Positions 9,586 to 38,343 of a DNA stretch of 53,014 bases are shown here, one piece after another; the first letter of the stretch is position 1; the number at the start of each line of letters is the position of its first letter. The notes under the pieces were generated by a model. The model ran no database searches. It was not told the origin of the DNA and saw nothing but the letters and a program-made list of their open reading frames with translations. The DNA lies in the NCBI GenBank assembly GCA_964601015.1, contig CAZRLY010000004.1, forward strand, positions 1-53,014, read 5' to 3'. The translations under genes were made by a program, and so were the position numbers. This DNA is from an uncultured bacterium (GTDB lineage: Bacteria > Poribacteria > WGA-4E > DTYX01 > CAZRLY01).

Positions 9586-11154
9586 ATGTCTGAAGCGAAG
9601 AAACTAAACGAAACTAACTATCAAAATATCGAACTGACTGACGAGGGGATTATATTCAAGCGGCGCGGTTTTCTTCGCAGCATTCGTTCGGCTGTCGCAT
9701 ATAGCGATGTTGAAACCGTCATGCTAAATGAGAAAGATAAACGGCTTGCTATTCTCAAAAAGGATGGGGAGTTATTATCTATCAAAAAAGGGCTTATTGC
9801 CCGTTGCAGGCGGATGACGGATGAATTACATAAAATAATTTCCGAGAAAGTAGAAAATGCAAAGGCAAAGTTAATGTGGCAGAGCATTCCGCTTCAATTT
9901 GATGTATTAAATCAGCAGATTAACGAACTTGTGGTTGAGGGAGACAAGATGAACGTATGTGATTTAGCCGAACTGCTCCTGATTCAATCCGTATGCCATG
10001 GTGCCAGCGACATTCACATTGAACCGCATCAATCCCCTTCTCATCGTGATGGGGATAACAATGCCAGTCTGTGTCAACCCACCTCCCTTGTGAGAGGGGG
10101 ATTAAGAGTACGCTACCGGATAGACGGTTTCTTTCGTGACATCGCTTATATTCCAGGACACATCAAAAACAGATTAATCTCGCGAATAAAGGTTATCTCA
10201 AACCTTATCATCTACAAACACAACATTCCACAGGAGGGGAGCATTCGTTTAACGGTGGATGGATTGAGCGTGGATTTCAGGGTATCCATCATCCCCACTA
10301 TTATGGGCGAAAAGATAGTCATCAGAGCTTTTGATATTTTGGGTGCCTCTCGGAAGGCGGGAAACGAGATTGGCTCATCCGGGCAAAAGGCGGAAGAATT
10401 GCGTCCTCTATTTACTTCTGAAGGGAAGAACGAAGCGGTAGTTGATGTCTTATTTTTAGAATCCCTTGGCTTTACCGATGATGTGCTAAAGGGCTTTGAA
10501 TCGTTGATACTTCAAAATCAAGGGACGATTATTCTGACCGGCCCTTCTGGTAGCGGCAAGACAACAACTCTCTACTCAGCTTTGCGTCGGATACATCAGG
10601 TTAGAGGCGATAGCGTAAGCATCGTTTCCATAGAAGACCCGGTCGAATACAACCTCGAAGTGGCCAACCAGATTCAGGTGGATACACATAACGGATTGAC
10701 CTTCGCAAAAACCTTAGCTTCTGTGTTACGTCAGGACCCGGAGGTTATAATGGTGGGGGAGATACGCGACCCGGAGACTGCTGAAATAGCGATTCAAGCG
10801 GGGTTGACAGGGCATTTAGTGCTAACAACTGTCCACAGCGGAACAGCAGCGGGTGTATTTACGAGATTGCTTGACATGGGTTTGGAACCGTTTTTGGTAG
10901 CATCGTCGGTCAGAGGTATAGTAGCGCAACGTCTTGTGCGCCGTAAGACGATGACAAACTACAAGGGACGTACAGCAATCGCTGAACTATTGAGCGTCAC
11001 AGATGACATCAGGGAACTTATCATGAAGAGAAGCACTACCGGTGTTATTGAAGAAAAAGCACGCGAGTTGGGAATGCAAACCCTGAAAGAAAACGGACAC
11101 CAAAAAGTAGAAAATGGCATTACGACAGAGGAAGAACTTATTAGAGTTCTGTAA
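9586..11154 (+). CDS. gspE: GspE/PilB-family secretion ATPase with atypical features: non-canonical N-terminus, two internal insertions, and no tetracysteine motif
   Basis: GGGGAGG SD 5 nt before ATG 9586 (the ORF itself opens at TTG 9559). Motifs present: ASDIHIEP, RYRIDG, Walker A GPSGSGKTTT, Asp box SIEDPVEY, Walker B DPEVIMVGEIRD, His box GHLVLTTVHS. Confidence 0.85.
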   Translation: MSEAKKLNETNYQNIELTDEGIIFKRRGFLRSIRSAVAYSDVETVMLNEKDKRLAILKKDGELLSIKKGLIARCRRMTDELHKIISEKVENAKAKLMWQSIPLQFDVLNQQINELVVEGDKMNVCDLAELLLIQSVCHGASDIHIEPHQSPSHRDGDNNASLCQPTSLVRGGLRVRYRIDGFFRDIAYIPGHIKNRLISRIKVISNLIIYKHNIPQEGSIRLTVDGLSVDFRVSIIPTIMGEKIVIRAFDILGASRKAGNEIGSSGQKAEELRPLFTSEGKNEAVVDVLFLESLGFTDDVLKGFESLILQNQGTIILTGPSGSGKTTTLYSALRRIHQVRGDSVSIVSIEDPVEYNLEVANQIQVDTHNGLTFAKTLASVLRQDPEVIMVGEIRDPETAEIAIQAGLTGHLVLTTVHSGTAAGVFTRLLDMGLEPFLVASSVRGIVAQRLVRRKTMTNYKGRTAIAELLSVTDDIRELIMKRSTTGVIEEKARELGMQTLKENGHQKVENGITTEEELIRVL

Positions 11155-11354: not shown

Positions 11355-14300
11355 ATGAAAAAAACAATACTTATTCTAATTATTATTTTCATCTCTTCAT
11401 CGTTCTGTTATTCAGCGACGATATCTCAGTTACAAATCAGCCCCAATCCACTTTCACCGGACGGAGATAAAAATGAGGACACATGCAAAATATCCTTTAT
11501 GTTAGATGTACCGGTAGACGTAATCATTCGCATTAGCGATAGGGCTGACAATGTCGTCTTAGAGGACAAGCGGAAGCGTAAAAGTGGTTTAAACGAATAC
11601 GTTTGGGAACCAGGCGCGGGAACACTAAGCGATGGAGACTATACGGTAAACATCATAATAGACGGGGAAACGAAAGCGTCAAGCAGTGTAACTATTGATA
11701 CGCAACCCATTATCAATTTTTTCGTAGCGAACGGGCTCAGTCCCGTTCTGCCCAACCCTTTCTCTCCCGATGGAAATGGCATCAATGATAGTTTGACCAT
11801 ACGGTATCGCTTGGCGATTCGGTCGAAGGTATTCATAAACATAGACAATGGCTCTATAATTCTGGATTTGGGCACTGTTGATGCAGGGACTAATGAATAC
11901 ATTTATACGCCTGCAGTTGACACATTCCAAAATGATGGAATACATCAGCTTGAAATAGTCGCAGACACAGATAACGATGGTATTGATGAATTTGACCCGA
12001 AGACGGAATCATACTCTGTTCGCGTCGACATAGCCGGTCCGAGGATTACCAACCTCCGCACAGAACCTGATTCACTTTCGCCATCTTCAGGGGAAGTAGA
12101 AGATAACGTCTCTATAACCATCAGTTTTAATCTCTCCGAAAATGCACTGGTTAGCATCCTGATTAAAGACGCATCGCATAACGAGCTTTTATCGGATACT
12201 CGTATGCGCGATGCCGGCTTAAACTCTTACGTTTGGGAGTTTGGGCAGCCAATTGGCGATGGGTTATATACAATCCTCGCCGTAGCAGATGAAGGCAAAA
12301 ACGGCATTGATGATGACGAACAAATAACGACGCATTTACTCGTAACGGATGTTCCTGCGGCGAATATAATCACCAATATTTCAGTAAACCCCAATCCGTA
12401 TTCTCCAAACAAACACGATAAGGTTGATATTACCTTTGTATTGTCAAACGACGCAAACGTTCAGATAAAACTGTCAGGTGCGATTATTGACGAATACCAA
12501 CAACGCCGAGCAGGCATCAATAAGTTTCTCTTCACCCCAACTGGTATCCCCGACGGCATACATGAAATAGCCATCAATGTTGATTTTAATGGCGATGGAA
12601 CAGCAGATAAACAAATAACCACCGCTTATGTAATTGACTCTACACCCCCAATAATTAGCAACATATCCGTTTTCCCTTCTCGCCTCTCGCCGAATGGTGA
12701 TGGGCTAAATGATTTCGCTGAAATAAGTTTCATGGTATCAGGAACCAGCCCACAGCCCATACCACCGTCTGTTGACCCAAATGGCAGCGTTGGAATATTT
12801 GAATTCGATGACGAAGGTTCAGGTAAATGGCTTTCGGCACCGCCATTGCCGATTCCAGCAGGAGCCAGGTTGTCTGTCACACCATTAGCAGCCCCCGAGG
12901 AGACGATATCACTCACAATCAGCGGGACATACAGGGGCAGTGTGGTAACCGATGAGATAGGGCTGCTCGAAGGAGAAATGCTCTCCAAAATCACCCTCAG
13001 TGCATACGACTCAGTTACTGACATAACAGATGTAAAAGGTGCCAACGTTGGGGAGAAAATTTGGATAGCTTGGTTCACGGGAAATGTCGCCGTAAACATC
13101 TATACTCAGGAAGGTGAGCTTAAAACAATTGTCTTAGTTAAACCGAGTTTTCACGGAGACGGGCTATACCGCGCAGAGTGGCTGCCCTCTGAATTCATAG
13201 AAGACGGAAATTATATATTCAGAATCATAGCCCAAGACGATGTCGGCAACTCTTCACAGCAATCAGGCGGTATCTCTACCAGCAGAACCTCAATAGAGAT
13301 AAAAAATCCGAACGTCTCCTCCAAACGCATTTCGCCCTTGGAACAAGATACCATAACCGATGAATTGATTATCTCGTTTGAACTATCCAAACCAGGTACT
13401 GTCACAGCAAAGATATTAGATTTGCATCAGACTCCGCCTGAAGAAGTGCGAATACTATCACCGCAAGAGGGTACTCCCCTGAACTATACTGTTGTCTGGG
13501 ATGGAAAAGATGAGGATGGCTTCTATGTCTGTCTCTTGGGGGATACAGGCATTGAGAAAACCTACAGTTTTACCATTGCCGCCATAGATACTGAGACATC
13601 AGACGTAGTGGAATATAATGGCACTGTAATAGTCGATAACGAAAGGCCATCTGCCCCTACTGTAAAGATATCTCCGCCGAACAACAGAGACGAAGGCATG
13701 GAAAATCAGCCTACTAATCAGACGGAGATAACAGTAAAGGGAGTTGCTGAACCAGCGAGCACGGTGGAGATAAAGATAGATGGAGTCATAATTGGCAGCG
13801 TAGCAGCAGACAGCGCGACCGGTGAATATAGCATGCCGGATATCTCCATCACGGAAGGCATGCACAGGATAACAGCGCGGGCTATTGATAGTGCAGGCAA
13901 CCGTGGAACGGAAGCGTATGTGGAGGATGATTCTCTGGCTGAACGAGGGTATTACAACGAAAAGGGAGTTTACATAAAGGGGTATTACGTGGTGGATATA
14001 ACAAAACCTACCACGAATATCAAGAACGTTTTGTTCAAGAACGTCTTGGGGGAGGAGGAAATGTCGGAATATATTTCGTTAGGTTGGTATTCCTCTTCGG
14101 TGACGATAAACTTAACCGCAGAAGACAATTACTCTAAAGAAGGTAAAATTGATACCTTCGCAAAAGCGATAAGACTGGAGGATGCTCAAGAACAAACGCC
14201 GCCTACCGAAGAAGACCTAACGGATAGCATTATAATCGAAGAGGATGGCATTTATGAGTTGAAATATTTTTCCAGAGATGCCGCGGGGAACATAGAAGAG

Positions 14301-17300
14301 GTCAAAACAGCCATAAATCAGGTTAAAATAGACAAGATACCTCCGGAGAGCATAATTACGAAGCTTGTGGCCGGCGGGCAAACGGTCAAAGAGGATGAGT
14401 TTGACGCGCCAATTATCTTTACCAAATCGCCTATATTTATCAGAGGTACAGCGTCTGATAAAATGCAGGACTCCGGGATAACAGGTTCGGGCATCAACAA
14501 AGTGGAAGTTGGAATCAGCAAGGACGGGGAGCCGATGACAGATGATGATTGGTATACTGCCGACGGTGCGTCTATGGGAAGTTGGACGCTTAACTTCGCG
14601 CCTGAAGCGACCGGGCTTTACGAGATAGCCTCCTGCGCCACAGATAACGCCGGCAACAAAGAAACGTATACGGACAAGATAAGAATCTATTTTACCGCCG
14701 TTTATGATACGGCTTTCGCCATCTCCTTATCCCAAGGGCGTATAAGATTATCCTGGCCGCTTGTGGATGGGGTAGAAAAATACGACATATATCGAAATAC
14801 GGTAGAAGAATTTGACCAGGGAAATCGGGTTGCAGAAAACCTTGAGTTCGCAAACTGGGTTGACGACAAACCGAAAGAGGATGGCAACCGTTACTACTAC
14901 TGGATTAAAAAAGCGGGAGCGGAAGCAAGCGAACCAGCACTGTTTCCTGTAATAAATGCCGTCTGCGATAAAAATTCGCCGGTAGGTGAAATTACCAGCA
15001 TAGAAGTGGAAATAAGCAATACATTGGTTAAATACACAGAATTTGAGAATATACCGCCTCTAAAGAACACCCCAATAATCGTAAATGGGACAGCCACTGA
15101 TGAAGTCTCTGGAGTCAGCAGGATTGAAATAGGCATAAAGAAAGACGGTGGCCAGATAGATTGGTCTCCTATTGATGTGGTGAATCCTGGTGAACCCGGC
15201 GGTTCACCTTCCGTAACCTTCTCCTACAAATTTGTACCCACACATACAGGCAGCTATTTAATCCAGTTGCGAGTAACGGATGAAGTGGGCAATAGCAATA
15301 TTGTAGGCATTCCTCCGAGTGGTAGTCCTCTTACCATAGATTTTCTCATTGAAGGAACAGCAACGCCAATCTCAGATGGACGGATCTGGCTATCTTGGGT
15401 ACCTCAAGCCTCGGCCACAGGATACGACATATACCGCCAGACTACGCCGGCGTTCGACCCAAATACGAACCCAATAGCGACTGTGATAAGCCCTACATGG
15501 CTCGACACAAACACAATAGACGGCACCAAATACTACTACTGGGTAACCCCAAAAGGCAGTCTGAAACCGGAGAGCCGGAACCCGTTAGCTTACGCTATAT
15601 CAGACAGCCGCCCGCCGCAAATAGAAAACATCGCCGCATCGCCAACTCCCTTCACGCCTGATGGCGACCGATTGGATGACCAAACTACCATCTACTTTAC
15701 GCTCACAGAAGAATGCTATGCAACTTTGCACATCTACAATAGCGATGGAGAAATACTAAAAAAACTACTGGTCAACCAACACTTGACAGCGGGTGACCAA
15801 TTGGTTGTGTGGGATGGCATAAAAGATGACGGCAAAGGGGCACCGCCTGGAATATATACGTTCAAATTTGAACGAACTGAAACGTTTGACCTGGCGGGCA
15901 ACACATTGCTGCAAGATATAACCGGCACCGTTGAAATCCACGAAAGCGCGCTCACCCTGAGCCACCTGTACGTCAAGCCAAATCCGTTTTCGCCTGATGG
16001 AGATAAAATCAACGACAGCACATACATCAATTACGTGCTTTCAGCAAAAGCTGATTATGTAGCAGTCAATATATTTGACACGGTGAGCGGCGTACAAAGT
16101 CGCATTAACTCCATCTATGTCGAAGCTTTGAGATACGTCTATGACGCAGGAAGCGGAAGGTGGGTAGCCGTACACGTTAGAGACGGCATTCCAACTGGTA
16201 AATCCAATGAACACTACTATTTGGCACCAGTTGACCCAAAAGATCCGACAGAACCCCCGTTTGAATTTGAAGAGATACCCGATATGGCACCTACAATTGA
16301 TGATTACCTTGCAAACTACCAGACAGAAAATCCAAATTGGGTGCCCGTTTCCTTCGCTGTAAAGTGGACCGGTGGTGGTGCTGCAAATCAAGGCGCATAC
16401 ATCTTTCAAATCTTGGCAGCGGACACCGCAGGACGGCGTTCTCTCGAAAAAACAGGTGAGATAATACTTGAGAGCATAAACGTTGTGCCGAACGACAAAA
16501 CCCCCCCCGTAGTCGTGCAGACTTATCCAATAGAAGAGTCTGAGGTACACGAACAACTCACGAAGGTGTGGGCCGAGTTAAGTGACGGACAGGGAGTTGG
16601 AATTGACCTATCTCAATGTACTATCCGACTGCAAGGCAGCAGCGGCACTATCAGCGGAGAGCAATCCAACAACGGGAGTAACAGAATCACCTGGGAACTG
16701 GATGAACCACTCAACCAATATGGAAAGGACGACGGCGCCTACTATATCATCATCTCAACCATTGACTTGGCCTCAAACCGCTCGCCCGGATTGCTCGTAC
16801 ACAAATTTACCTACAACATGAAAGCGAAGGACGTATTCCTGCCCAGCGTAACCCGAGCAGACATCATCGTAATTGACCAAGAAACAAAGGAAAACAGATA
16901 CCCTTTAGCTTACGATGAAAACCCGGCACTCATTGAAAACGGTTTGATACCCGACGATAGAAATACAGGGGATATTCTGCAATTCAAGGAAGAATTCGAT
17001 ATCGTAAGAGCGCATATAACTGACCAAAGTCAGGCGAGCCCTTACAATACTGGAATAGACTTTAATAACTCAATCATAAGCATAATCAACCCTTACGGGC
17101 AGGTTTTAGAGGGCTATCGGCAGGATACGTTAGATTCCGAAGAAGATTTGTGGAACGGTGCGCTAATCTATCAACTGGATTCAACGCAAATTTTAGACTA
17201 CGGCGAATACAAAATCGAAGTAGTCCCCTACGACAATGCCGGAAATTCTGGAAGAAAATTGACCTATACTTTCAGATACCAAACGGATGAAGATACAACA

Positions 17301-32300: not shown

Positions 32301-35300
32301 GACGGAACAGACGACGGCACATATACCATCATCGTCGTCCCTGTGGATAATGCAGGTAATGTGGCAGAGGGGATGAGGGGGATTGAGTTTACCTATACCA
32401 CAACATCGCCCCTGCTAATTTCGACTATACCAAAAGCTAATTCTAACTTGAATTCTGCTTTAACATACATCTCCGCTACTATAAAAGACCAAAGTGGTTC
32501 GGGGCTGGATTTAGATAATTCACGTATTTTGTTATCCGGTCAGAAGGGCATGGTAAGTGGTTCTTCCCAAAACGATGGAGATAACACGCTCCTATTCTAT
32601 CTGGACGCGCCGCTTTCAAACGATGGCAGCGATGACGGAGAATACGAAATGAGTATACTGGCGACGGACAAGACAGGGGCAAACGCTAACTTCGTTCGCA
32701 GGTTTTTATACGATACCACCGCGCCGGAGGTAAAATTGTTAATCCCGCCGGATACCAGCGCGTTCTCCACCCCGATATCCAAAATATCCGCTACGCTTGA
32801 AGATACAGGTTCGGGCGTGGACGTTGCAAATTCTACCATAGGACTTAAAGGGCCAAAGGGGGAAATAGTTGGGCAGAAAACCAACGATGGTGTCAGTGTT
32901 ATCTCTCTGGAATTTGGTAGTGGGACGGATGCGATGGATGATGGAATATACCAAATTCTCATTCTGCCGGTGGATAACGCTGGAAACTCCCCGCCGCAAA
33001 AGATTACCTCAAGTTTTATCTGCGATACCCGTCCGCCTGAAGTAGTCAAAGCTCACGCTGGTGCCGGCTCCATTGTCATATCCTTCCCGTTCAGTGGTGA
33101 AGGGACTCCGTCCCGTTCTGTGGAGGTGGCGATAGATAAAATAGAAGTTACATTGAGAGATGAACTTAGTGGCGTTGATGTGGATAACTCTACCTTGAGT
33201 TTAATTGGACCGCGTGGGAAGGTAGACGGAATTACAAAAATAAAAGTGGAAAGTGGAAATGGAAAAGGAGGAAGTACTATGATGGCGCCTTACTTTCCCC
33301 TTTCCACTTTCACCTTTGTCTTTGCCCCTCTCCCTCTTGACGGCACAGCAAACGGAGAATATAGAATAGAAGTAACCGCCGTGGATATGGCATCAAATGT
33401 GCTCGCTGACAGTTTCGTTGGTTCTTTCATCTACCAGCCTACTGCGCCGGAACTTCTGAGTACAACCCCATCAGATGGCTCCAAACTTTCGATGCCCATA
33501 AACACTATATCCGCCGTTCTGATTGACCGTAAGGGCAGTGCGCCTACCCAAAGCGGCATCAGCCTGCAAGGGACGCAAATGAGAGTGTTTTCACCGGGTG
33601 GGGACGAGTTGTCAGGCAAGTTGACAAAGGAAACAGTCGACGAAGGGAAAGCCGAACTAACCTTGCACTTGGAAAAACTTTTCGCTACCGATGGCTCAGA
33701 GGATGGGAGATATGGCATTTATATCACCACTGTGGATAACAGAGGCAATAGCGGTGAATACTCCCTCCAATTTACCTATGATACTACCGCGCCAAAAGTG
33801 GTGGGGACTGTCCCTGCCGACGACGCTATCTTAAATACGCCGCTATCAAATGTATCTGCGTCACTATCGGACGCATACGCTGGAATTGACTTAGTGGCCA
33901 GTAGTATCAGCCTTTACAAAGGAAAGTTGGGACAGAACCCAAATGAACCCGCCAGCGGGCCCATTTTATCAGTAGATGGAATTCAGAAAAATGACGGGGA
34001 TTCCATGATAAAATTGGATTTTCCCACGTTGTCAACCAACGGCAGTGATGACGGTATTTACATCATCGACATCATGCCCGTTGACATGCTAAAAAATACC
34101 CTCGTCTCTCCTGAACGGTATACGTTCATTTACGATACCACAGCGCCGCAACTCATCAAAACTGAGCCAGCGTCCGCAGTTGTCGTCACAGGCATCAGGT
34201 TATTCAAAGTCAGCGCATCCTTCCACGATGATGGCGGAATGGATGTTACAAGCTCGGAGATTATGCTCACCGGTCCAAATGGAAATACCATAACAGGGGA
34301 AATCTCCACGCCACCCGAAGTCTTGGCGAATTCGGCTACGGGCGACGTTACGATAACATTTTACTTTGATACATCCCTGAGCGTTGAGGGAGATGACGAT
34401 GGGGAATACCGAATCAATATCAAAGCCGTAGATATGGCGAACAACACTAAGGAATATACATCCACGTTCATTTACGAGAGCGGTTCAATTGACGCACCGA
34501 AGATAGAATACATCAGCGTCCAACCGTTGGCTTTCTCGCCAAACGCTGACGGCATACATGATACCACACAGATATCCTATCAACTCGACAGAGCGTCATC
34601 GGTGACAGCAGAAATTTTGGCTCCCCAGTCAGGGACTGGGGATACCCGCGAGATTGTAAGGTTGCTTGCAAATAAACAGATTCAGCCGCCTGGACGACAT
34701 ACGCTAACGTGGAATGGCGTTGGTTCCGTAGCGGCGCAGCTCCGTCCCGCCACTCAGTCCACGCCCATTTTCGCGCCTGACGGAGAATATGTTGTGCGGA
34801 TTGTAGCAACTGATATGACAAGCAACAAGACACAAACCCGTAAAACCCATGTCATCCTCGATACGCAACCGCCTGCTGTAGGCGTTCCTACCCTCTCCAG
34901 CAACCCGATTACGCCAAATGGAGACGGACTTGCGGATACCACTACCTTGAGTTTTTCCATATCCAATTCCAACCCGACGGACGGACTGAAGATAGATTTC
35001 TACGAATCCGATGGAGTTGCTAAATTGCCGTCCTCTGTGGTGATTCCGACATTTGTGGGCGATGGCATGTATTCGGTAACGTGGGACGGAACGGATGGAA
35101 TAAGTAACGTACCGCTACCGGATGGAGAGTACAGATTCGTAATCAAGGCGTTTGATGAGGCGGGAAACTCTCGCACACAATCCGGCGTCCTCTTACTTGA
35201 CAGTTCTCCTCCACAGATAAACATATTTTTTTCCGATATTAAAGTGGAATTGCGACGGGAACTTGAAGAAGAATTCAGGAGTTTATCCACCACATCAACG

Positions 35301-37868
35301 CTAAAATTCACGAACAGTTCGCCGATTGCAATCGCAGGCACAATTGCGGATGTATCGCCCATACAAAAACTGGAAATATCAATAAAAAAAGACGGGAAGC
35401 CCTTTGCCAGTTGGTCGAAAATAGAAATTCAAGAGGGGCAATTCGATTTTCGCTTTTCTCCCCCCAGCGATGGGCGATACGATTTCAGCTTGCGAGCTAA
35501 CGACAATCTGGGATATGAAACCCTATTAAACGATGTCGTTTCGGTCATCTACGATACTACCCCGCCTGAACATATCACAACGGTTATCTCAAACTCAGAA
35601 GAATTTCCCCTCGCACCTTCCGATATTGCTGCCGTCTCAAACGGTCAAAGAATAACCGTTAAAAGCTCGTGGGACGCAACGGATTATATGGTAACAGTGG
35701 ATATGTCCTCACTGGATTCTGAGTTCTTAGAAGAACCCATACAAATTACGGATAAAGGCGACGGGGAGTATACTCTTGAATACCAGATAAGCCCCGCAAA
35801 TAGAGAAACTGACGGTGAAAAACATATCACAATACAGGCAATAGATGTTGCTGGAAACACAACAATCGAAGAGAATATTCGCGTCAGGTTGGATAACATC
35901 GCACCGAATATACTCTCTCTTGAAACCCCGCAAAAGATATTCAAAAATGGAGCGAAGGTTACGCTAAATTTGAAGGCGGATTCCGAAGGTTATCAAGTTT
36001 TTGCGGATTTTCACCCGCTGGATACTGAATATGCTGACAGTTTGTACTCTGTCGAAGAGCTCGGCGGGGGAGACTACAACATCCACTATCACATCAGCCG
36101 GAATAACAAGACAACCGACGGCGAAATTTCTTTACCAGTATTCATAACAGACTCCGCCAACATCGCCCAACAAAACATCACTTTAACGCTCGACAATAAC
36201 CCACCCTCTATCTTATCGCTGGATGTAGCGGATAATCCAGATGGGGTTGTGGGCAACGGGGTCAAATTAACCTTGCTCCTCCTCGCTGACGCGCCCGGAT
36301 ACAAAGTTAATGCAGATTTCAGCGAAATAGATTCGGGATACAAAGACGGTGGAGAAATAGTAACTGATAACCAAAATGGAAACTACCTTATCTCCTACAA
36401 AATCAGCGATGAAAATACAATAGCAGATGGAAAAGGGTTAAAGATTTTCGTAAAAGTTGCCGATAGTGCAAACAACGAATCAAGCAAGTACATATCCGTA
36501 GATTTGGATAATACGCCGCCTGAGATAACATCTATAAAGAACGCGGACGAAGACAATATTTACAGGAACGGCGACACAATAACCATCACCTTGACGCTAA
36601 AGGATGAATCGGAATACCCGAATTCTGGCGAATCCGTCTCCCAAATTTACGCAGACTTCAGTGCTGTGGATACAGCATATTCCGCAAATAAGGTACATAT
36701 TGCACAGCCCGAAGCCTTAGAGACTTCGGCTACCAAAAACACGTATACAATCCAGTATACTATCTCACAAAATAACGCTAAGGGTAAAGATGGAACTCTA
36801 AAAAATCTGCCTGTAGTCATTACCGTTTCAGACGGAATGAACGAAACCTCCGACGACACTTTTACAATCAACTTGGATAACCACCCACCCGCCTTAACTG
36901 TAAACAGTCCGGCGGAAGGGGAGGTGGTTTTCTCACCCAAAGTTTCCGTCAGCGGAACGGTAGAGTTGGATGCAACGTTACTGATAAACGACGAGGAGAT
37001 AGCATACGACGGAAAAATACCTTCTGAGGTAGGTGTTTTTGCGATAACCCTGGACGTTAAACAGGACATAAACCACATAGAAATCAAAGCGGTGGACGAA
37101 GCCAAAAACACAACAGTCATTAGACGGGATGTAAGATACATACCCCAAGCGACGGTTGAAGAAGGCGGAAAGATAACCCTAAATGGAGAGGTGGACGACG
37201 GGATGCCAGATAATGACACACACATTAAAATTCCACCCAAGAGCTTGCGCAAAAACACCGCTATCATCATTGAGCACATCCCCAATTTTAACGGTACTTC
37301 AGCATTGCACCCGTTGGCAACATATAAATTCTCCTTAGTAGAGCAAAATACAACGAACAACACCGCCGAAACATATTCCGGAGACAGCGTGCGGTTCCTC
37401 ATCCCCGCTGAAATAACCCTGCGATATTCTGACCAGAATCTGGAAACGGAACGGAATATTAAAATCTTCCGATGGGATGGCGTGAGATGGCGTGAAGTTG
37501 GCGGCCGGCTGGACGCCGATAAAAATACCGTCACAGCAAAAGTTGATTCCCTATCCATCTACGCTGTATTTGCCACATATCCAGAACTCTACGGGGAAAC
37601 GGAAAACCGATTCAGAATAGCACAGCCCTTGCTAACTCCCAATGGCGATGGGGTAAACGAGCGGGTGGATTTCCCGCCCAACACCACCATTATCCGCATC
37701 TTTGATAAGCGGGGTAAAATAATCCGAAAGGTTAATACGAACGGTGAAACATGGAGTTGGCGCGGCAAAGATGAATCATACGTTATCGTCCAGCCAGGAC
37801 TGTACATCTATCAAGTTGAATTTGTCGATGGACAAATAAAAACAGGTACAATAGTCGTAGCAAGGTGA
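11355..37868 (+). CDS. Giant (8,837 aa) repetitive Ig-fold cell-surface / adhesin-like protein with T9SS type-B (CHU_C)-like C-terminal domain
   Basis: A single stop-free 26,514-nt frame. Signal peptide MKKTILILIIIFISSSFCYSA. N-terminal FlgD-Ig-like modules carry SPNPLSPDGDKNEDT-type motifs. Two FN3-like segments (RIRLSWP..YDIYRN, RIWLSWV..YDIYRQ). About 50 tandem ~100-aa modules are joined by F-x-YDT-x-PP junctions and contain SGID..S.I.L.GP.G and ATDGSDDGEYT...D.AGN motifs. The C-terminus (LLTPNGDGVNERVDF...IRIFDKRGKII...WSWRGKDES..VQPGLYIYQVEF...GTIVVAR) resembles a CHU_C domain. Confidence 0.9.
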   Translation: MKKTILILIIIFISSSFCYSATISQLQISPNPLSPDGDKNEDTCKISFMLDVPVDVIIRISDRADNVVLEDKRKRKSGLNEYVWEPGAGTLSDGDYTVNIIIDGETKASSSVTIDTQPIINFFVANGLSPVLPNPFSPDGNGINDSLTIRYRLAIRSKVFINIDNGSIILDLGTVDAGTNEYIYTPAVDTFQNDGIHQLEIVADTDNDGIDEFDPKTESYSVRVDIAGPRITNLRTEPDSLSPSSGEVEDNVSITISFNLSENALVSILIKDASHNELLSDTRMRDAGLNSYVWEFGQPIGDGLYTILAVADEGKNGIDDDEQITTHLLVTDVPAANIITNISVNPNPYSPNKHDKVDITFVLSNDANVQIKLSGAIIDEYQQRRAGINKFLFTPTGIPDGIHEIAINVDFNGDGTADKQITTAYVIDSTPPIISNISVFPSRLSPNGDGLNDFAEISFMVSGTSPQPIPPSVDPNGSVGIFEFDDEGSGKWLSAPPLPIPAGARLSVTPLAAPEETISLTISGTYRGSVVTDEIGLLEGEMLSKITLSAYDSVTDITDVKGANVGEKIWIAWFTGNVAVNIYTQEGELKTIVLVKPSFHGDGLYRAEWLPSEFIEDGNYIFRIIAQDDVGNSSQQSGGISTSRTSIEIKNPNVSSKRISPLEQDTITDELIISFELSKPGTVTAKILDLHQTPPEEVRILSPQEGTPLNYTVVWDGKDEDGFYVCLLGDTGIEKTYSFTIAAIDTETSDVVEYNGTVIVDNERPSAPTVKISPPNNRDEGMENQPTNQTEITVKGVAEPASTVEIKIDGVIIGSVAADSATGEYSMPDISITEGMHRITARAIDSAGNRGTEAYVEDDSLAERGYYNEKGVYIKGYYVVDITKPTTNIKNVLFKNVLGEEEMSEYISLGWYSSSVTINLTAEDNYSKEGKIDTFAKAIRLEDAQEQTPPTEEDLTDSIIIEEDGIYELKYFSRDAAGNIEEVKTAINQVKIDKIPPESIITKLVAGGQTVKEDEFDAPIIFTKSPIFIRGTASDKMQDSGITGSGINKVEVGISKDGEPMTDDDWYTADGASMGSWTLNFAPEATGLYEIASCATDNAGNKETYTDKIRIYFTAVYDTAFAISLSQGRIRLSWPLVDGVEKYDIYRNTVEEFDQGNRVAENLEFANWVDDKPKEDGNRYYYWIKKAGAEASEPALFPVINAVCDKNSPVGEITSIEVEISNTLVKYTEFENIPPLKNTPIIVNGTATDEVSGVSRIEIGIKKDGGQIDWSPIDVVNPGEPGGSPSVTFSYKFVPTHTGSYLIQLRVTDEVGNSNIVGIPPSGSPLTIDFLIEGTATPISDGRIWLSWVPQASATGYDIYRQTTPAFDPNTNPIATVISPTWLDTNTIDGTKYYYWVTPKGSLKPESRNPLAYAISDSRPPQIENIAASPTPFTPDGDRLDDQTTIYFTLTEECYATLHIYNSDGEILKKLLVNQHLTAGDQLVVWDGIKDDGKGAPPGIYTFKFERTETFDLAGNTLLQDITGTVEIHESALTLSHLYVKPNPFSPDGDKINDSTYINYVLSAKADYVAVNIFDTVSGVQSRINSIYVEALRYVYDAGSGRWVAVHVRDGIPTGKSNEHYYLAPVDPKDPTEPPFEFEEIPDMAPTIDDYLANYQTENPNWVPVSFAVKWTGGGAANQGAYIFQILAADTAGRRSLEKTGEIILESINVVPNDKTPPVVVQTYPIEESEVHEQLTKVWAELSDGQGVGIDLSQCTIRLQGSSGTISGEQSNNGSNRITWELDEPLNQYGKDDGAYYIIISTIDLASNRSPGLLVHKFTYNMKAKDVFLPSVTRADIIVIDQETKENRYPLAYDENPALIENGLIPDDRNTGDILQFKEEFDIVRAHITDQSQASPYNTGIDFNNSIISIINPYGQVLEGYRQDTLDSEEDLWNGALIYQLDSTQILDYGEYKIEVVPYDNAGNSGRKLTYTFRYQTDEDTTEPDNKPPKQPEIKFLLPDEPKIIIKVKDASTEEQPSSGINYQETQDSIKVLLDGSTVAGNITYTSGKDVETGDVMCSFEFTITSPSSAGLVEGRYTVEVVSVDNNGLTYPEDGKPYTLFFLLDNTSPEVTPGYPKEGDIFQFFPELVYVKLKDDVSAIDQSNSAIKLLNPDNGEIPWITEFKLDEGEKEAELILKAPEGDNPEIQKLIIDGWYRLCVIAADVSGNRNAEEQHITFRFDPNATDVLMEPAADSRKNGDINEIRFTFSNRSVDFDLNAATVLIDLKGLDGISIIGPPASTINKSTAVFTPTVPLTIDGWYSITLTLKDDEENTIDFVKGFRYDNTPPEILGDVDINLDELYVSATVEDMGDASGIDANRTGVVLFGGTESAATERVPGYLDNSVTVTENINDGGKQVEIVRQLTSKWVYKQSLPSGGYTIRVTAVDEAGNAKSSDVTFNIDAQPPVLSNAEMTILESGEETTTQIDVNLAPEARPINYLVKEITTTLSDDQTGLNLKESSIQLWFSLTKASVREEIISSVQSKPPASLTVSPTVPLSLSGYYTLSITVADLSGNEANLEWQFLFDNIPPNIGAIKAVGGISDYEISENDIIFAQFSEIKVELDDEGTSMDTIDTSLLVRNNTTGNIVAGKLNNTETDSSWIASKTLESGTYILEITAVDEANNSTQKTINFSVDARNTPQLVKLVAGQSATESNVPYSGGIVSKMFHKLTATLEALEDTTLALAQSQITLIGPNGKVEGTQSLISESDKKGSIIFTLDNPPTIDGTSDGRYTIEIDAADDTKFLPRHFTVEFIYDTMSPVISRLILEGKEYQFADETVYANDVNSLTIVLSDSSGIDMEATNFVVKYPDSPDDITYKGSDLSVSPFIFSLPLENLSANGTYILEVLPVDVAGNRPSSPYQARFVFDTTAPQIASSTPVADTTATGVLSTITVTLTDGSGSGVAPELSSLMLTKNDVPIDGVLSYDVDTLTWEFLTPLSANTPSADGLYCITVSAEDRLGNQQTHSFNFNYAASSPLLISTTPEQNEWTKGPVTEIQAVFRTQTQGDIGVSNITLIRQPFDKDTAIVVVDSEDAAIEKLNANEYRLGYVLLGLLEDGYYQIKIDLSYDESAKANYESVFYYDASPPYINNLCLGRVYTVAQDKNTFPADGSATNTPLKEVSVTFADNVGVDAQKVNLSLIGPRGEIDASQVTEGQTPAPTRNTISLQFPILSANGSADGEYRLVVSSIADTLGNTAATPEEITFIYDTTPPSIVSLTPSPDISVTSPIDSVIVTLTDNLNPMGETVKGSGVDTTTSWVRLIGISGEPILASSNINQEADEYVLTLSFAALAGDGSADGTYAIEVYSQDRVGNTSQITKFNFNYTTEGPILASVNPPDKSGLNVPLNQVKVQFAPNKGRELDLDASHITINGPNGIVSGNTVRSEVSPEDTLLYIFDEPVGYDGQYTVDITAVDKEGAQAHYSTSFYCDTQPPQIARDAKGKLMIIPSPGSMVNGALTEIRAKLTDAGMGIDLNNSIIQLTGQAGSILAPDLSLGGELTNNGVDEVIFTLSNPLSPEKGTNGLYTVNVIPVDKLGNAAPTITQFTYDTIAPTLVSTSPEVGAVITEPIDSIEVVLTDSAGSGLNVANTQITVTIDGDTILDGKQIYDGNNTFLWYFNEALSVDQTDALSLTVTISTEDNLGNARIITCDFNYTTVAPVLLSVSPEENSKLNTPIKEIRAVLKDRSHTGIKFGGASYIMLSKTPFSGTEVLIAGTLDDNGNDTLIFTPDDNLSTDGQSDGMYNLIIVAADNAEHVALYKKSFFYDTQPPTAQVISPEVDVTSDSISRISARLTDEGVGIDLNSSEITLASPSGSITGQKVHDGVDTISLLFPQLPMDGTADGIYTITVIPVDLSSNSPAVPLRKSFTYDTTPPSIVSVKSGGQALHSLPEIQIMAPISSLSVTLEDVNGIALSSSSLSLRSPNGNIEGGESQKLEVSQQRATLQLNFETPLILQGMYLLTVDAYDKLYNFVKIEYELEYSINAPTLASMNPPHKSVTNTPISSITVLLDDKGGEGIDTSVSTISVLGPNAEGTQHIPAELPLTPGLLEWDFTFPLATDGTQDGKYTVSIVAVDKKTRGVLTLTDDNSRYFIYDTQPPEVLSIFGETVEIKGELRDGLVISDRLSYISAHLNEGDEFILSEGTSPLKTETTAGIDLMASDIKLTGPSGEITAQKSNDGKETLRLQFPALTDDGLYTVEVTPVDKVGNTTAYPTKVTYLLDTTPPQLVSTVPADGVIAPSGLTSVKALVSDEGSGVDGNNSSIKLFDANGELVEGETVLSGESELTYYVSSSPLSQGEHTIEVYVADKSKNLLNVPQANCSTYISKFSVSTQISQSVIVTPTDNAALREPIDEVTAVFADDDGTTVSIDVENSSINVVKVTGEQLPITLSGELTYDVKYNKLVFTFDRQFATDGSDDGYYEIFISVASTGFVLGDGIYPPKTGIKEIQYQPTSFRYDTTAPSINLVYPAEGSIVVSQIAQISALLEDVAIDLGNSSIKLKGPSGFVIGNQVDNGVDTLIYRLFSPLAINGSDDGTYTVQVEPKDLLGNGYPVPKEFNFLYDTQPPTLIKSEPAANTTVLVPLEKISLTFSDLTGVDATKSNISLTGPGGLVPGSLVPGDWSAISNHQYPITFVFSEPLDANSEEDDGDYTVNLQLIDKAGNKQETSFTFTYTTISPGITTLVPKANTYVNSLKDITVLLYDNSGTGIDVTRSTIGLEGPNGDVPGQLTTEGIDTLIFTPDNNTGLSLRDDGEYVITIVAYDNAHHSAHYQRIFYYDTQPPDVESLSPANGSALNSPFSVSATLSDNLSGVDITLSTIELKGPGGELIGEQTSDGKNTLVCSFAPFATDGSFVLSDGIHPLKTETDDGVYTISILPVDIAGNKPAEPISASFHYDTQPPEVSSTYPLADSTIREVISSVSVALTDDGSGLDLGNSTISLTGPNGAVLGELSDDGISKVFFNFETLRHDGSDDGEYKIGVVAVDKAGNSGSVVLRPDKETISFFYYSDAPELVSTTPKAGEGLQTPIYEVSATLKDVSGTGLDLSQTTLRLIGEDGIPVSGGQSDNAVPGQIQHTATVTFTLHHPFATDGSQDGEYVLHIDAKDKRGKQGNYKVHFFYDTMAPSVLSVFPEDNAIINSPFSVVEGKLTDEHAQVDLFSSTIRLIGPNGEVKGIGKNDGEDTIKLSFSLLLTDGSDDGEYTLSIMPVDLLGNTLATPLTYTFLYDTMPPVVVETIPAKDEIIAGSAVSGFNIRVTLDDGDGSGVDADWRDGEPLLRITDDEGREISGEQYFVSHDGIHPFETETTAVPHLKGTLMDLVLPLSDLSLPPSITSSRYYIHVVCADIAGNKGEEVRIPFSFDYQPPVLVKMTPEAGKMVNGIIDEINIEISDEGSGVNAENTLITVLSPDGNEIIGEYPNTPTPQNPITFSFRPTVPLSVNGWYTITIEAQDFANNKINITPSFFYDSIPPQIDEVVALPSSTLITEGGVIGGTINSITAGISDVGNAPLTGSSGIDVKNTKVVLREKLDEESIDEWNTVPGALNNSDTATIWNVSSTDGLTQSGLYKIEISVFDQAGNASNRTINFRYSDTPSQMPELVVLTPAHSARLNKPISVVTAQLKDNSGSGIDFSSSTIEVSGAGISQADTISNDQIDIVLWHFASPLATDGSDDGIYLVNINAVDNAGNSKVFPTIKFTYDTQAPQVQGMYTPKTADAEISGVGGIAKSISEVSAILADAGGTGIDVEKSNITLEDSDGKLIDGEHNNGVFVSHEGIHPLKTETVEEGSSTLLLQYRFSPLRADGTDDGIYTIKILSADVLGNTTALQYQFRYDTSAPTIKNATPKPAAIVVASIGSVRVELTDGVGVDVEESTITVTGPEGAEVVLGANKEFFSSPTQNGEDALIYVFAHPLKMDGSHDGIYTVSVYAVDLLGNFFRYNYDFTYTATAPALVSITPRDEEEINEPIDEIVAILNDRSGKGIDVNRTSLKLFSSVGEIEGVGGISPDGSSVFLRLDRSLATDGTDEGLYTIKLEAVDNSGASVTYISTFLYDTRPPEVISTVPDESSYLAKSPLPPFTKGGGISVVSARFRDDGVGINLRDSEINLVQAPTVLVGEKTDNGADRISFNFSPFATDGSDDGEYTIRIIPVDRLGNKPIVPIEKKFFYDTTPPNVVEVTPMGDSTLLSPISRVTVMLEDTAPDSSLGVGVDFTLSSLSLSGPNGKVNGTAGKDNENSLWLDFPPLKSDGSADGTYTLEVLPVDMLGNAPVKPMEYQFTYNTKAPMLLNISPANNALLNTPTSQISAVVGKGLDLNRCRISVEGEGVSPSDFYSTLGTDTLVYSFAERFATDGSDDGEYIVTIVAMGKPPVSATYTTRFTYDTQPPLVEVGSFSLSYLSDGATKTFPNEISVQLADAHAGVDFVLGDGIHPPKTEIVERSSLKLFGPTGEIAGRNTNNGVDTIKLDFSSDVLTNLNDGVYTIQVKPVDKLGNKTATPYSFRFRLDTTPPTVVGVCLERRYTPAQDRDSRVVSGGLVTGDQSPIVITSPFERIEVSLNDEGVGVDVESLKLRLLGPDGVMDGDVREVTPKDAEDVTLQWNLTTPLKGDGNDDGEYAIEVVAADALGNSVLTTIDIVYLTTVPELISVNGYVYQNTEKPLFATRIPLQNVTVMFKDRSGTGIDFDKSRLELQGPGVSESDRIDNNGTNELSWVFAHPLATDGSDDGLYILNVTVADKSPNSINYAPISFLCDTTAPTVEHWSIGALEQWSKELQRPDTFIIASPFDEIEVILADNGVGVDVENSTIKLVGPNGPVKGTMTNDGVDTLRLRFEQRKDNGSDDGEYVILVNPKDKLGNGATIALSETFLYDTQPPKLSDTHPVEGETITTPLKEISVVLIDNLSGVDVANTSISVTGPNGPVLGDISFFVLSEGIHPLKTETGEDGDREPPLQFIFKEELASDGTDDGTYTIIVVPVDNAGNVAEGMRGIEFTYTTTSPLLISTIPKANSNLNSALTYISATIKDQSGSGLDLDNSRILLSGQKGMVSGSSQNDGDNTLLFYLDAPLSNDGSDDGEYEMSILATDKTGANANFVRRFLYDTTAPEVKLLIPPDTSAFSTPISKISATLEDTGSGVDVANSTIGLKGPKGEIVGQKTNDGVSVISLEFGSGTDAMDDGIYQILILPVDNAGNSPPQKITSSFICDTRPPEVVKAHAGAGSIVISFPFSGEGTPSRSVEVAIDKIEVTLRDELSGVDVDNSTLSLIGPRGKVDGITKIKVESGNGKGGSTMMAPYFPLSTFTFVFAPLPLDGTANGEYRIEVTAVDMASNVLADSFVGSFIYQPTAPELLSTTPSDGSKLSMPINTISAVLIDRKGSAPTQSGISLQGTQMRVFSPGGDELSGKLTKETVDEGKAELTLHLEKLFATDGSEDGRYGIYITTVDNRGNSGEYSLQFTYDTTAPKVVGTVPADDAILNTPLSNVSASLSDAYAGIDLVASSISLYKGKLGQNPNEPASGPILSVDGIQKNDGDSMIKLDFPTLSTNGSDDGIYIIDIMPVDMLKNTLVSPERYTFIYDTTAPQLIKTEPASAVVVTGIRLFKVSASFHDDGGMDVTSSEIMLTGPNGNTITGEISTPPEVLANSATGDVTITFYFDTSLSVEGDDDGEYRINIKAVDMANNTKEYTSTFIYESGSIDAPKIEYISVQPLAFSPNADGIHDTTQISYQLDRASSVTAEILAPQSGTGDTREIVRLLANKQIQPPGRHTLTWNGVGSVAAQLRPATQSTPIFAPDGEYVVRIVATDMTSNKTQTRKTHVILDTQPPAVGVPTLSSNPITPNGDGLADTTTLSFSISNSNPTDGLKIDFYESDGVAKLPSSVVIPTFVGDGMYSVTWDGTDGISNVPLPDGEYRFVIKAFDEAGNSRTQSGVLLLDSSPPQINIFFSDIKVELRRELEEEFRSLSTTSTLKFTNSSPIAIAGTIADVSPIQKLEISIKKDGKPFASWSKIEIQEGQFDFRFSPPSDGRYDFSLRANDNLGYETLLNDVVSVIYDTTPPEHITTVISNSEEFPLAPSDIAAVSNGQRITVKSSWDATDYMVTVDMSSLDSEFLEEPIQITDKGDGEYTLEYQISPANRETDGEKHITIQAIDVAGNTTIEENIRVRLDNIAPNILSLETPQKIFKNGAKVTLNLKADSEGYQVFADFHPLDTEYADSLYSVEELGGGDYNIHYHISRNNKTTDGEISLPVFITDSANIAQQNITLTLDNNPPSILSLDVADNPDGVVGNGVKLTLLLLADAPGYKVNADFSEIDSGYKDGGEIVTDNQNGNYLISYKISDENTIADGKGLKIFVKVADSANNESSKYISVDLDNTPPEITSIKNADEDNIYRNGDTITITLTLKDESEYPNSGESVSQIYADFSAVDTAYSANKVHIAQPEALETSATKNTYTIQYTISQNNAKGKDGTLKNLPVVITVSDGMNETSDDTFTINLDNHPPALTVNSPAEGEVVFSPKVSVSGTVELDATLLINDEEIAYDGKIPSEVGVFAITLDVKQDINHIEIKAVDEAKNTTVIRRDVRYIPQATVEEGGKITLNGEVDDGMPDNDTHIKIPPKSLRKNTAIIIEHIPNFNGTSALHPLATYKFSLVEQNTTNNTAETYSGDSVRFLIPAEITLRYSDQNLETERNIKIFRWDGVRWREVGGRLDADKNTVTAKVDSLSIYAVFATYPELYGETENRFRIAQPLLTPNGDGVNERVDFPPNTTIIRIFDKRGKIIRKVNTNGETWSWRGKDESYVIVQPGLYIYQVEFVDGQIKTGTIVVAR
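20741..20780 (-). repeat. 40-nt palindromic in-frame element, family A, inverted copy
   Basis: Sequence TCTCTGTCTTGGGCGGGTGTACACCGTCGCCCAAGACAAA. It is the reverse complement of the family consensus with one loop substitution. Translated as LCLGRVYTVAQDK. Confidence 0.9.
21934..21953. repeat. Perfect 20-nt palindrome CCCCAGACTTAAGTCTGGGG inside the giant CDS
   Basis: Self-complementary over all 20 nt. Encodes APDLSLG. A near-identical copy lies at 30031-30050. Confidence 0.9.
23871..23910 (+). repeat. Family A element, divergent loop
   Basis: Sequence TTTATCTTGAGCGAAGGTACGTCCCCGCTCAAGACAGAGA. The arms TCTTGAGCG and CGCTCAAGA are retained. Translated as FILSEGTSPLKTET. Confidence 0.8.
24750..24789 (+). 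repeat. Family A element
   Basis: Sequence TTTGTCTTGGGCGACGGTATATACCCGCCCAAGACAGGGA. Translated as FVLGDGIYPPKTGI. Confidence 0.9.
26010..26049 (+). repeat. Family A element
   Basis: Sequence TTTGTCTTGAGCGACGGTATACACCCGCTCAAGACAGAGA. Translated as FVLSDGIHPLKTET. Confidence 0.9.
27321..27360 (+). repeat. Family A element, variant arms
   Basis: Sequence TTTGTCTCTCACGACGGTATACACCCGTTCGAGACAGAGA. The GTCTC/GAGAC pairing is compensatory relative to the GTCTT/AAGAC pairing of other copies. Translated as FVSHDGIHPFETET. Confidence 0.85.
28565..28581 (+). repeat. Truncated family A remnant (loop plus right arm only)
   Basis: GTATACACCCAAGACAG matches the loop and right arm of the consensus, but no left arm is present. 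Translated as MYTPKTA. Confidence 0.55.
28746..28785 (+). repeat. Family A element
   Basis: Sequence TTTGTCTCTCACGAGGGTATACACCCGCTCAAGACAGAGA. Translated as FVSHEGIHPLKTET. Confidence 0.85.
29646..29685. repeat. Nested C-run/G-run palindrome containing a G9 homopolymer, in frame in the giant CDS
   Basis: Sequence AAATCCCCCCTGCCCCCCTTTACCAAAGGGGGGGGGATTT. Inner stem is CCCCCCTTT/AAAGGGGGG; the outer ends are AAATCCC../..GGGATTT. Encodes KSPLPPFTKGGGIS. Confidence 0.9.
30031..30050. repeat. Second copy of the 20-nt palindrome (CCCCAGACTCAAGTCTGGGG)
   Basis: 9-bp arms with a 2-nt centre. Encodes APDSSLG. Confidence 0.9.
30693..30732 (+). repeat. Family A element (consensus copy)
   Basis: Sequence TTTGTCTTGGGCGACGGTATACACCCGCCCAAGACAGAGA. 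Translated as FVLGDGIHPPKTEI. Confidence 0.95.
30967..31006 (+). repeat. Family A element, same DNA orientation but read in a different frame
   Basis: Sequence TTTGTCTTGAGCGAAGGTATACACCCGCTCAAGACAGAGA. Translated as VCLERRYTPAQDRD rather than FVLSEGIHPLKTET. Confidence 0.95.
32199..32238 (+). repeat. Family A element
   Basis: The 40-nt sequence is identical to the copy at 30967-31006. Translated as FVLSEGIHPLKTET. Confidence 0.95.
33242..33317. repeat. Imperfect ~30-nt-arm palindrome built from GTGGAAA heptamers, in frame in the giant CDS
   Basis: Left arm AAAAGTGGAAAGTGGAAATGGAAAAGGAGGAAGTA. Right arm TACTTTCCCCTTTCCACTTTCACCTTT. Encodes KVESGNGKGGSTMMAPYFPLSTFTF. Confidence 0.8.
34623..34641. 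repeat. Perfect 8-bp-stem hairpin CCCCAGTC-AGG-GACTGGGG in the giant CDS
   Basis: The reverse complementarity is visible directly. Encodes PQSGTGD within a FlgD-Ig-like module. Confidence 0.85.
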
Positions 37869-38245: not shown

Positions 38246-38343
38246 TATTGTGACATTCGTGGTTTCAGGAATGGGAAATTACAAACCTAACTTGGTAGAA
38301 GTCGTCCGGCTTTCCGGTCCGTCTGGTTTAGGAAGGATTGAAA

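Follow-up and report, generated by a model that had tools for sequence, protein, structure and literature searches.

A 953-kDa protein with a three-module Ig super-repeat, encoded last in a cassette with a secretin and a PorV-like barrel, from a Poribacteria-like bacterium

Giant adhesins built of repeated immunoglobulin (Ig)-like domains are a familiar class of bacterial surface proteins, and one more gene of this kind is by itself no surprise. Here, we describe such a gene, a giant open reading frame (ORF) of 26.5 kb in a 53,014-nt stretch of DNA from an uncultured bacterium (contig CAZRLY010000004.1 of assembly GCA_964601015.1, positions 1 to 53,014; hereafter the window), together with the secretin- and pilus-type genes that precede it. 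A described counterpart is the SprB/SprF pair of Flavobacterium johnsoniae, in which a giant repetitive surface protein possesses a Sec signal and a TIGR04131-type domain inside a sorting region of ~235 aa, and a dedicated outer-membrane barrel is encoded next to it (PMC12618676). The locus in the window shares these traits, but its barrel is of the PorV/PorQ and not of the PorP/SprF type, its machine is of the secretin type, resembling type IV pili (T4P) and type II secretion systems (T2SS) and not a secretion system of type IX (T9SS), and its lineage is Poribacteria-like and not Bacteroidota, with no evidence of gliding.

The Salmonella adhesin SiiE and the repeats-in-toxin (RTX) adhesins of the LapA/MpIBP type resemble the giant protein in their dozens of tandem bacterial Ig-like (BIg) domains, their acidity and the possible Ca2+-stiffened linkers. 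However, the giant lacks an RTX nonapeptide block, with the motif GG.G.D present only at aa 4049 and 5768, has a cleavable N-terminal signal peptide instead, and has no type I secretion system (T1SS) genes nearby. An assignment to the RTX/T1SS adhesins was therefore rejected on the basis of these two scattered motifs and the T4P/T2SS neighbours. In Omnitrophota, very long genes have been described that immediately follow gspD/E/F-like and pilin genes and are preceded by T2SS/T4P-like loci (10.1101/2023.11.21.568195; 10.64898/2026.06.07.730766). Their products comprise ~30,000-147,000 aa, contain numerous transmembrane regions and frequently include SecA-DEAD, dockerin or enzyme domains (10.1101/2023.11.21.568195; 10.64898/2026.06.07.730766), whereas the giant in the window has 8,837 aa, one signal peptide as its one hydrophobic segment, only Ig-like domains plus a C-terminal sorting domain (CTD), and a PorV-like partner; on this architecture, it was not assigned to the Omnitrophota type. 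InvL of Acinetobacter baumannii, an Ig-like adhesin secreted via the T2SS (PMC9245377), provides a precedent for the exit of such an adhesin through a T2SS secretin, although it is small and has neither a CTD nor a PorV-like partner. Like tandem BIg surface proteins, the giant combines Big_* modules with an export signal and a passenger free of membrane-spanning segments. In titin, Ig-type domains form a higher-order repeat, in which a domain resembles the equivalent domain one unit away more closely than the domain beside it. The giant resembles titin in having Ig-type domains in a super-repeat, but titin is eukaryotic and intracellular, and its 7- and 11-domain units are tied to the thick-filament periodicity, whereas the unit of the giant consists of three domains and no binding partner of matching periodicity is known.

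The giant ORF has the following layout.

11355..37868, plus strand: giant ORF with ATG start, encoding 8,837 aa, 952.8 kDa, pI 4.29
11355..11417, plus strand: Sec-type signal peptide MKKTILILIIIFISSSFCYSA, the sole hydrophobic segment of the giant
11421..12596 (aa 23-414), plus strand: four tandem FlgD_ig/CHU_C-like beta-sandwich domains (self-comparison profile; Pfam FlgD_ig, CHU_C), the proposed distal tip
12597..16505 (aa 415-1717), plus strand: mixed N-terminal region with Big_13/Big_6/Ca_tandemer, OmpL47-like, PKD-like and FlgD_ig-like matches
16506..34481 (aa 1718-7709), plus strand: core array of 52 contiguous Ig-like modules of ~112 aa (self-comparison profile, Pfam)
19743..34481, plus strand: three-module super-repeat, modules 10-52 in the order (XYC)x7, XY, (XYC)x6, XY
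34482..36887 (aa 7710-8511), plus strand: divergent C-terminal Ig-like modules with D-N/T-x-P-P junctions
37152..37865 (aa 8600-8837), plus strand: C-terminal sorting cassette of ~235 aa
37629..37844 (aa 8759-8830), plus strand: CHU_C/TIGR04131 type-B-like domain within the C-terminal cassette

The giant is a single genuine gene for a very acidic 953-kDa protein with a Sec signal peptide. The original prediction of an uninterrupted ORF of 8,837 codons was borne out at 11355..37868 on the plus strand, with no internal stop and the closest in-frame stop upstream at position 11235. Asp and Glu together account for 14% of the residues, and hydrophobic 19-mer windows are confined to aa 1-27, leaving no membrane-spanning segment in the passenger. 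In the two nearest relatives of the locus (L009 and L010), the L010 orthologue has an N-terminus resembling the signal peptide of the giant, while a fragment of the L009 orthologue is 73% identical over 1,203 aa and colinear with aa 51-1231. Comparison with this fragment gave a dN/dS of 0.32 over 1,142 aligned codons, which points to purifying selection on the giant gene. Furthermore, the JGI marine metagenome assembly 3300009314, the origin of the contig, and a second one, 3300009320, both contain a gene with a called product of 8,837 aa.

A hidden Markov model (HMM) started from one module and iterated over the protein itself detected an unbroken row of 52 modules, close to the ~50 expected, with lengths of 101-155 aa (typically ~112 aa), and ~9 weaker matches flanking the core array. 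The BLAST self-offsets of the giant likewise form a ladder at ~112 aa, and in total the protein contains ~75 beta-sandwich (Ig-like) domains. The number of F-x-Y-D-T-x-P-P junctions, initially counted as ~49, was too high: the literal motif F.YDT.PP has 12 matches and YDT..P has 22, while the relaxed pattern F-x-[YFLCI]-[DTNQEA]-[TASPNY]-x-x-P has 41, every one of them in the core. The acidic loop DGSDDGEY occurs five times exactly, and the pattern DG..[DN]G.Y is found 21 times in the giant.

The postulated three-module super-repeat is supported by the periodicity of the array. Mean module identity is 0.30-0.31 at lags of 3, 6 and 9 modules, compared with 0.28-0.29 at the remaining lags, and the period-3 statistic (z = 6) was reached by none of 2,000 permutations, while the other periods from 2 to 8 were not significant. 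Iterative assignment placed a module of type C at each third position, and the X and Y positions were distinct from each other as well, with the observed contrast reached by 1 of 5,000 swaps. Average-linkage clustering did not separate the types and yielded one big cluster, whereas the iterative assignment and type-specific HMMs did. The individual triplets are 326-368 aa long. The triplet held as the unit of amplification, with ~330-350 aa instead of the ~300 aa first estimated. HMMs for X, Y and C that had been trained solely on the modules of the window were then applied to the giants of three more distant relatives, where they returned the orders ...CXYCXYCXyCXYCXYc (L013), ...CXYCXYYCXYCXYCXYC (L014) and ...CXYCXYcCXx (L015). 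The same cycle thus appears in proteins outside the training set, and we therefore regard the triplet as ancestral to the family and as the unit by which the length of the array changes. This strict three-module grammar, conserved in orthologues, offers a clean bacterial counterpart to titin-like super-repeats.

Superimposed on the triplets is a younger block duplication, in which modules 25-31 (24747-27530) correspond to modules 45-51 (31680-34481) at a lag of 20 modules. The paired modules are 38-53% identical, against a mean of 0.33 for modules of the same type, and the lag-20 diagonal ranks best among 127 same-phase diagonals. The duplication is consistent with the lone phase slip (XY without C) after module 32, if a block XYC-XYC-XY was copied whole. 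In the linker ahead of module 45, we noticed an 8-nt tandem repeat, TGGAGCAT, with 4.9 copies at 31693-31731, encoding EHWSIGALEQWS. It is a candidate site for slipped-strand phase variation, since a change by one unit shifts the frame; no length variants of this repeat were seen in Logan contigs.

The core modules match Pfam Big_13 (171-176 bits), Big_3_3, CopC, Big_5 and Big_3_4, in agreement with the Big_5/CopC-like Ig fold that had been proposed. An AlphaFold2 (AF2) prediction of one triplet, the three-module model suggested at the outset, was based on an alignment of 13 triplets and gave three beta-sandwiches with a pLDDT of 88.8 and a pTM of 0.73; Foldseek matched the model to tandem arrays of the Ig, cadherin, filamin and titin kinds. 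The self-comparison that had also been suggested gave the ~112-aa ladder. The triplet profile matches the BIg domains of SiiE, an adhesin that binds Ca2+ (2yn3, E 2.6e-8), and the NCBIfam model Ca_tandemer matches aa 766-850. By resemblance to these families, and with its low pI and 14% Asp plus Glu, the giant may bind Ca2+ through its modules. Within the mixed N-terminal region, two further FlgD_ig-like domains lie at aa 1423-1612. Of the two families envisaged for the N-terminus, the FlgD-Ig-like one was recovered by Pfam FlgD_ig, while the FN3-like one was dropped because Pfam returned no fn3 match.

Towards the C-terminus, the pattern D[TNSA]x[PA]P has seven matches beyond aa 7720, the same number as the ~7 related junctions noted earlier, and both the four DNxPP junctions close to the C-terminus and the CHU_C-like tail were found as expected, the latter by Pfam CHU_C; a Glucodextran_B-like domain is also present in this region. 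The CHU_C match scored 49.1 bits in the 4,437-aa C-terminal half and 31.1 bits in a 397-aa C-terminal fragment (gathering score 27), and TIGR04131, the type-B sorting domain of the T9SS, scored 38.5 bits against a cutoff of 35. When the last 397 aa were searched against 1.84 billion representatives, 325 proteins were obtained at E<=1e-10. Among the matches listed, the proteins ranged from 158 to 6,358 aa, and for the last ~235 aa the matching segment formed the extreme C-terminus in nearly all matches listed for that part, in proteins of 158-5,436 aa. This nearly constant position at the end of varied proteins suggests that the cassette acts as a portable signal. Its size agrees with the ~235 aa reported as necessary for the secretion of proteins with type-B CTDs (PMC12618676). 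Against the PDB, the C-terminal 397 aa gave only a marginal sequence match, to FlgD (E 0.066).

The genes upstream of the giant in the window, and those downstream, are as follows.

109..651 (JGI start 163), plus strand: PilP/GspC-like small protein with weak T2SSB/T2SSC and GspC matches
696..4520, plus strand: PilQ/GspD-type secretin of 1,274 aa with an N-terminal extension of ~775 aa containing an AMIN domain
4517..7378, plus strand: 953-aa Ig-like protein with two core-type modules and a C-terminal FlgD_ig domain
7375..8334, plus strand: 14-strand outer-membrane barrel, PorV/PorQ-like, 319 aa
8476..9552, plus strand: PilC/GspF platform protein
9559..11154, plus strand: GspE/PilB-family ATPase
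38338..41651, plus strand: HD_5 (HD-GYP-like) protein, TPR protein and response regulator-GGDEF protein, downstream of the giant

Further upstream, the same contig encodes a pair of prepilins with the motifs G|LTMIE and G|FTLME, a pair of 527-533-aa proteins that resemble GspK, a PilB/MshE-type ATPase containing an MshEN domain, PilM, PilN and PilO. Secretin, GspE/PilB ATPase, GspF/PilC, PilM/N/O and prepilins, the set of a T2SS or type IVa pilus (T4aP), are thus found in one locus. Both junctions, between the secretin and the 953-aa gene and between the 953-aa gene and the barrel, overlap by 4 bp. The 953-aa protein carries its strong core-type modules at aa 492-597 and 604-706, confirming the two modules of the same type recognized in it beforehand. 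Its orthologues in L009 and L010 are 74-75% identical, with homologues of 900-954 aa in L013-L015; of the two roles considered for it, paralogue or partner, both apply, and as a partner it is conserved in five of the five related loci described below. The barrel matches PorV/PorQ (NF033709, E 2e-20, model positions 10-326 of 326) and not PorP_SprF, and a profile built from 37 barrel homologues matches F. johnsoniae PorV (6h3i_F) at E 6.6e-26. Its AF2 model has 14 strands (pLDDT 88, pTM 0.83), its top Foldseek matches are FadL and PorV, with a TMq of 0.67 against PorV 8gl6_F and 6h3i_F, and its C-terminus reads ...SVRF. With 83-90% identity to its orthologues, the barrel gene is the most conserved of the cluster.

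The cassette has the gene order (prepilins, PilB/MshE-type ATPase) PilM-N-O-P, secretin, ~950-aa Ig/FlgD_ig protein, PorV-like barrel, (PilC, second ATPase), giant, with the giant as its last gene, and it was present in all five related loci with a barrel identity of at least 42%. In the nearest relatives L009 and L010, whose ATPase is 69% identical, the order of a PilP-like protein, a long secretin, a 931-999-aa Ig/FlgD_ig protein, the barrel, PilC and the ATPase is kept, with PilO also upstream in L010, and a large ORF follows the ATPase until it is cut by the contig end. The loci L013, L014 and L015, with barrels 42-44% identical to that of the window, have PilM-N-O, a ~170-aa protein, the secretin, a 900-954-aa Ig/FlgD_ig protein and the barrel, followed directly by the giant; L015 begins inside the secretin gene, and earlier cassette genes were not seen there. 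The PilP/GspC-like gene keeps its position directly after PilO in L010, L013 and L014. The giants of L013-L015 comprise 4,443, 4,621 or 5,436 aa and have the same Pfam set, including CHU_C. L015 is part of the Candidatus Poribacteria metagenome-assembled genome (MAG) GCA_014730235.1, and another barrel homologue likewise comes from a Poribacteria MAG. On these matches, the organism of the window is probably related to Poribacteria, a tentative placement at identities of 42-45%. Distant FlgD_ig/Ig homologues of the N-terminal region in other lineages were located within 5 kb of a secretin in three of three cases. A literature search found no paper describing a cassette of a secretin, an Ig/FlgD_ig protein, a PorV-like barrel and a giant. 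The cassette described here joins a secretin/pilus machine, a PorV-family barrel and CTD-bearing cargo outside the Bacteroidota, has implications for the exit of giant proteins from the cell and for the origin of the T9SS sorting parts, and parallels the unexplained linkage between T2SS genes and giants in Omnitrophota.

We propose, with about as much confidence as doubt, that the giant is a Sec-exported, secretin-aided and barrel-anchored adhesive surface fibre, stiffened by Ca2+, with an N-terminal tip and a length set by triplets. After export by Sec, it would cross the outer membrane aided by the co-encoded secretin machine, and its C-terminal cassette would dock on the co-encoded PorV-like barrel, by which the giant would be held on the cell surface. 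With ~4 nm per Ig domain, it would project as a Ca2+-stiffened rod of roughly 0.25-0.35 µm, and the N-terminal FlgD_ig-type domains may form a distal adhesive tip for particles or host surfaces. In the X-Y-C order, neighbours are less alike than modules three apart, which, by analogy with titin, would be expected to limit misfolding between neighbours, while the gain or loss of whole triplets would set the length of the fibre. The natural series from 4,443 to 8,837 aa bears on how fibre length is set. The secretin route is favoured because the gene order is interleaved, translationally coupled and conserved, because the linkage to secretins recurs in unrelated lineages, and because the Omnitrophota giant genes are likewise preceded by T2SS/T4P-like loci.

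Several points weigh against this fibre reading or narrow it. No T2SS substrate is known to use a C-terminal signal, and in the systems characterised CTDs and PorV are parts of the T9SS, so that a T9SS elsewhere in the genome could export the giant. The 73.6 bits of the barrel on NF033709 are under the curated cutoff of 90 bits, Ca2+ binding and adhesion are argued from resemblance, and no secretin or giant lies near a barrel homologue with 33% identity (P0181, L017), by which the linkage is limited to the barrel subfamily of at least 42% identity. The two assemblies that hold the 8,837-aa product are both short-read. In three small metatranscriptomes of the same study, the search for transcripts yielded only one 38-nt simple-repeat contig, which is uninformative at the ~4x DNA depth of the organism. 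Moreover, type-B CTDs of the T9SS pair with PorP/SprF barrels, not with PorV (PMC12618676), and the giant, with its C-terminal TIGR04131/CHU_C domain, has no adjacent barrel of the PorP/SprF kind. A serious rival, since all characterised cases assign CTDs and PorV to the T9SS, is that the giant is an ordinary SprB-like substrate of a T9SS encoded elsewhere, anchored by a PorV/PorP-type barrel, while the pilus genes are only co-regulated attachment genes without a role in export. We judge this possible, though on the unlikely side. It accounts for a CTD that passes the TIGR04131 cutoff and for a barrel homologous to PorV, hundreds of unrelated passengers carry the C-terminal cassette, which implies that it is recognized by a general machine, and pilMNOPQ resembles a standard T4aP set, including the AMIN domain in the secretin. 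Yet the genes of the Ig protein and the barrel are placed between pilQ and pilC, with stop codons that overlap start codons, an arrangement kept in relatives at 42-90% identity, and unrelated FlgD_ig/Ig proteins of other lineages also stand beside secretin/ATPase sets. In addition, the named relatives are Poribacteria, outside the Bacteroidota, and our literature search found no report of a T9SS in Poribacteria, the two being co-mentioned in three papers and there in passing only.

A more far-reaching version of the secretin route, which we consider doubtful, is an undescribed hybrid system outside the Bacteroidota, in which a T4P/T2SS-type secretin would move the 953-aa protein and the giant as CTD-tagged Ig fibres across the outer membrane and the PorV-like barrel would receive their CTDs; if true, "T9SS" sorting parts, CTD and PorV-family shuttle, can function without the T9SS translocon. 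The translationally coupled genes for the secretin, the 953-aa protein and the barrel and the invariant gene order across related loci could also be explained if the giant and the 953-aa protein were structural accessories of the pilus machine, such as a collar, sheath or tether around the secretin, and not an independent adhesin. We find this improbable, because the twofold variation in the length of the giant among relatives (4,443 to 8,837 aa) is a better fit to a free fibre than to a fixed machine part, and the portable C-terminal cassette is common to many unrelated passengers. There is very little chance that the long ORF is an assembly artefact due to repeat expansion, collapse or chimerism. 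In its favour are the short-read origin of the assemblies, the depth of only 2-5x and length of at most 1.4 kb of the Logan contigs, and a few short unitigs of high depth that yield apparent deletion "joints", e.g., from 27362 to 28746. These joints coincide exactly with copies of a 42-nt palindrome described below, and we rejected them as variants, for they stem from 72-nt high-depth unitigs of this repeated palindrome. Logan unitigs of four other runs showed no difference to the ORF, although, being shallow and short, they are no proof of long-range continuity. An assembler also had little to collapse or expand, since the modules are divergent, with only 24-53% protein identity to the best partner, and the DNA repeats within the ORF are short, the longest being <70 nt with at most 89% identity and Tandem Repeats Finder reporting short simple repeats only. 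An artefact would further have to be reconciled with the identical product length in two assemblies, the presence, in relatives, of intact giants (4,443-5,436 aa) that follow the same module grammar, and an open frame of 26.5 kb under purifying selection.

Several neighbouring features deserve mention. The secretin extension (696-3020) consists of several similar segments with one AMIN match (24 bits; gathering score 20.5), and the secretins of L013 and L014 have just 680-692 aa. A scan of GTDB species-representative contigs with the secretin returned one weak match, with 37% identity, in a Planctomycetales MAG. An MshEN-domain ATPase is encoded upstream of the system at L016:5446-7167. Together with the HD_5 and GGDEF genes downstream, it suggests, from the known roles of these families, a control of attachment by cyclic di-GMP; the downstream HD_5, TPR and GGDEF genes possibly belong to the system.

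A second giant was noticed in another locus (L011/L012, the latter from the same sample as the window), represented by a 1,494-aa C-terminal fragment with 34% identity that is colinear with aa 7402-8837. In L011, it is followed by two ATPases, PilC, a PorP_SprF-TPR fusion and a 960-aa secretin, and this paralogous locus is the only one in which the PorP_SprF-TPR gene was found. In the loci L005, L006 and L007/L008, multi-Ig proteins of 1,047-2,617 aa with FlgD_ig/CHU_C adjoin small secretins of 391-472 aa, and two of these three loci also contain T2SSE ATPases of ~405 aa together with a ~600-aa LVIVD-like protein. The pairing of multi-Ig proteins with secretins in other lineages may represent a wider, undescribed association.

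The longest family of DNA repeats in the ORF is a 42-nt palindromic element with the consensus TTTGTCTTGAGCGACGGTATACACCCGCTCAAGACAGAGACA, a 13-bp stem and a 12-nt loop.

20746..32233: span of nine in-frame palindrome copies, with core starts at 20746 (minus strand, to 20777) and at 23874, 24753, 26013, 27324, 28749, 30696, 30970 and 32202 (plus strand)

All nine copies are located in the giant ORF, and the remaining 26.5 kb of the window contains none. Seven copies read FVLSDGIHPLKTET, one, in another frame, reads VCLERRYTPAQDRDS, and the inverted one reads LCLGRVYTVAQDK; the third forward frame, which contains a TGA, is not used. Within their modules, the copies sit at residues 3, 9, 9, 41, 43, 58, 66, 70 and 75, and these differing positions argue for insertion as DNA and not for inheritance via module duplication. 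The folding z-scores of five copies range from -3.7 to -5.7, and in three copies the stem has a compensatory change from A:T to G:C. Scans of metagenome contigs gave no match to the palindrome, but the scans also missed the L009 contig with its 20-mer and are therefore uninformative; at L009:4700-4790, a longer relative that shares the terminal inverted repeats is found between genes. The element looks like one of the repetitive extragenic palindromic (REP) or miniature inverted-repeat transposable element (MITE) type that is tolerated in the loops of Ig modules, and it is reminiscent of the in-frame palindromic elements of Rickettsia. The nine insertions map loops of the Ig fold that accept 14 extra residues.

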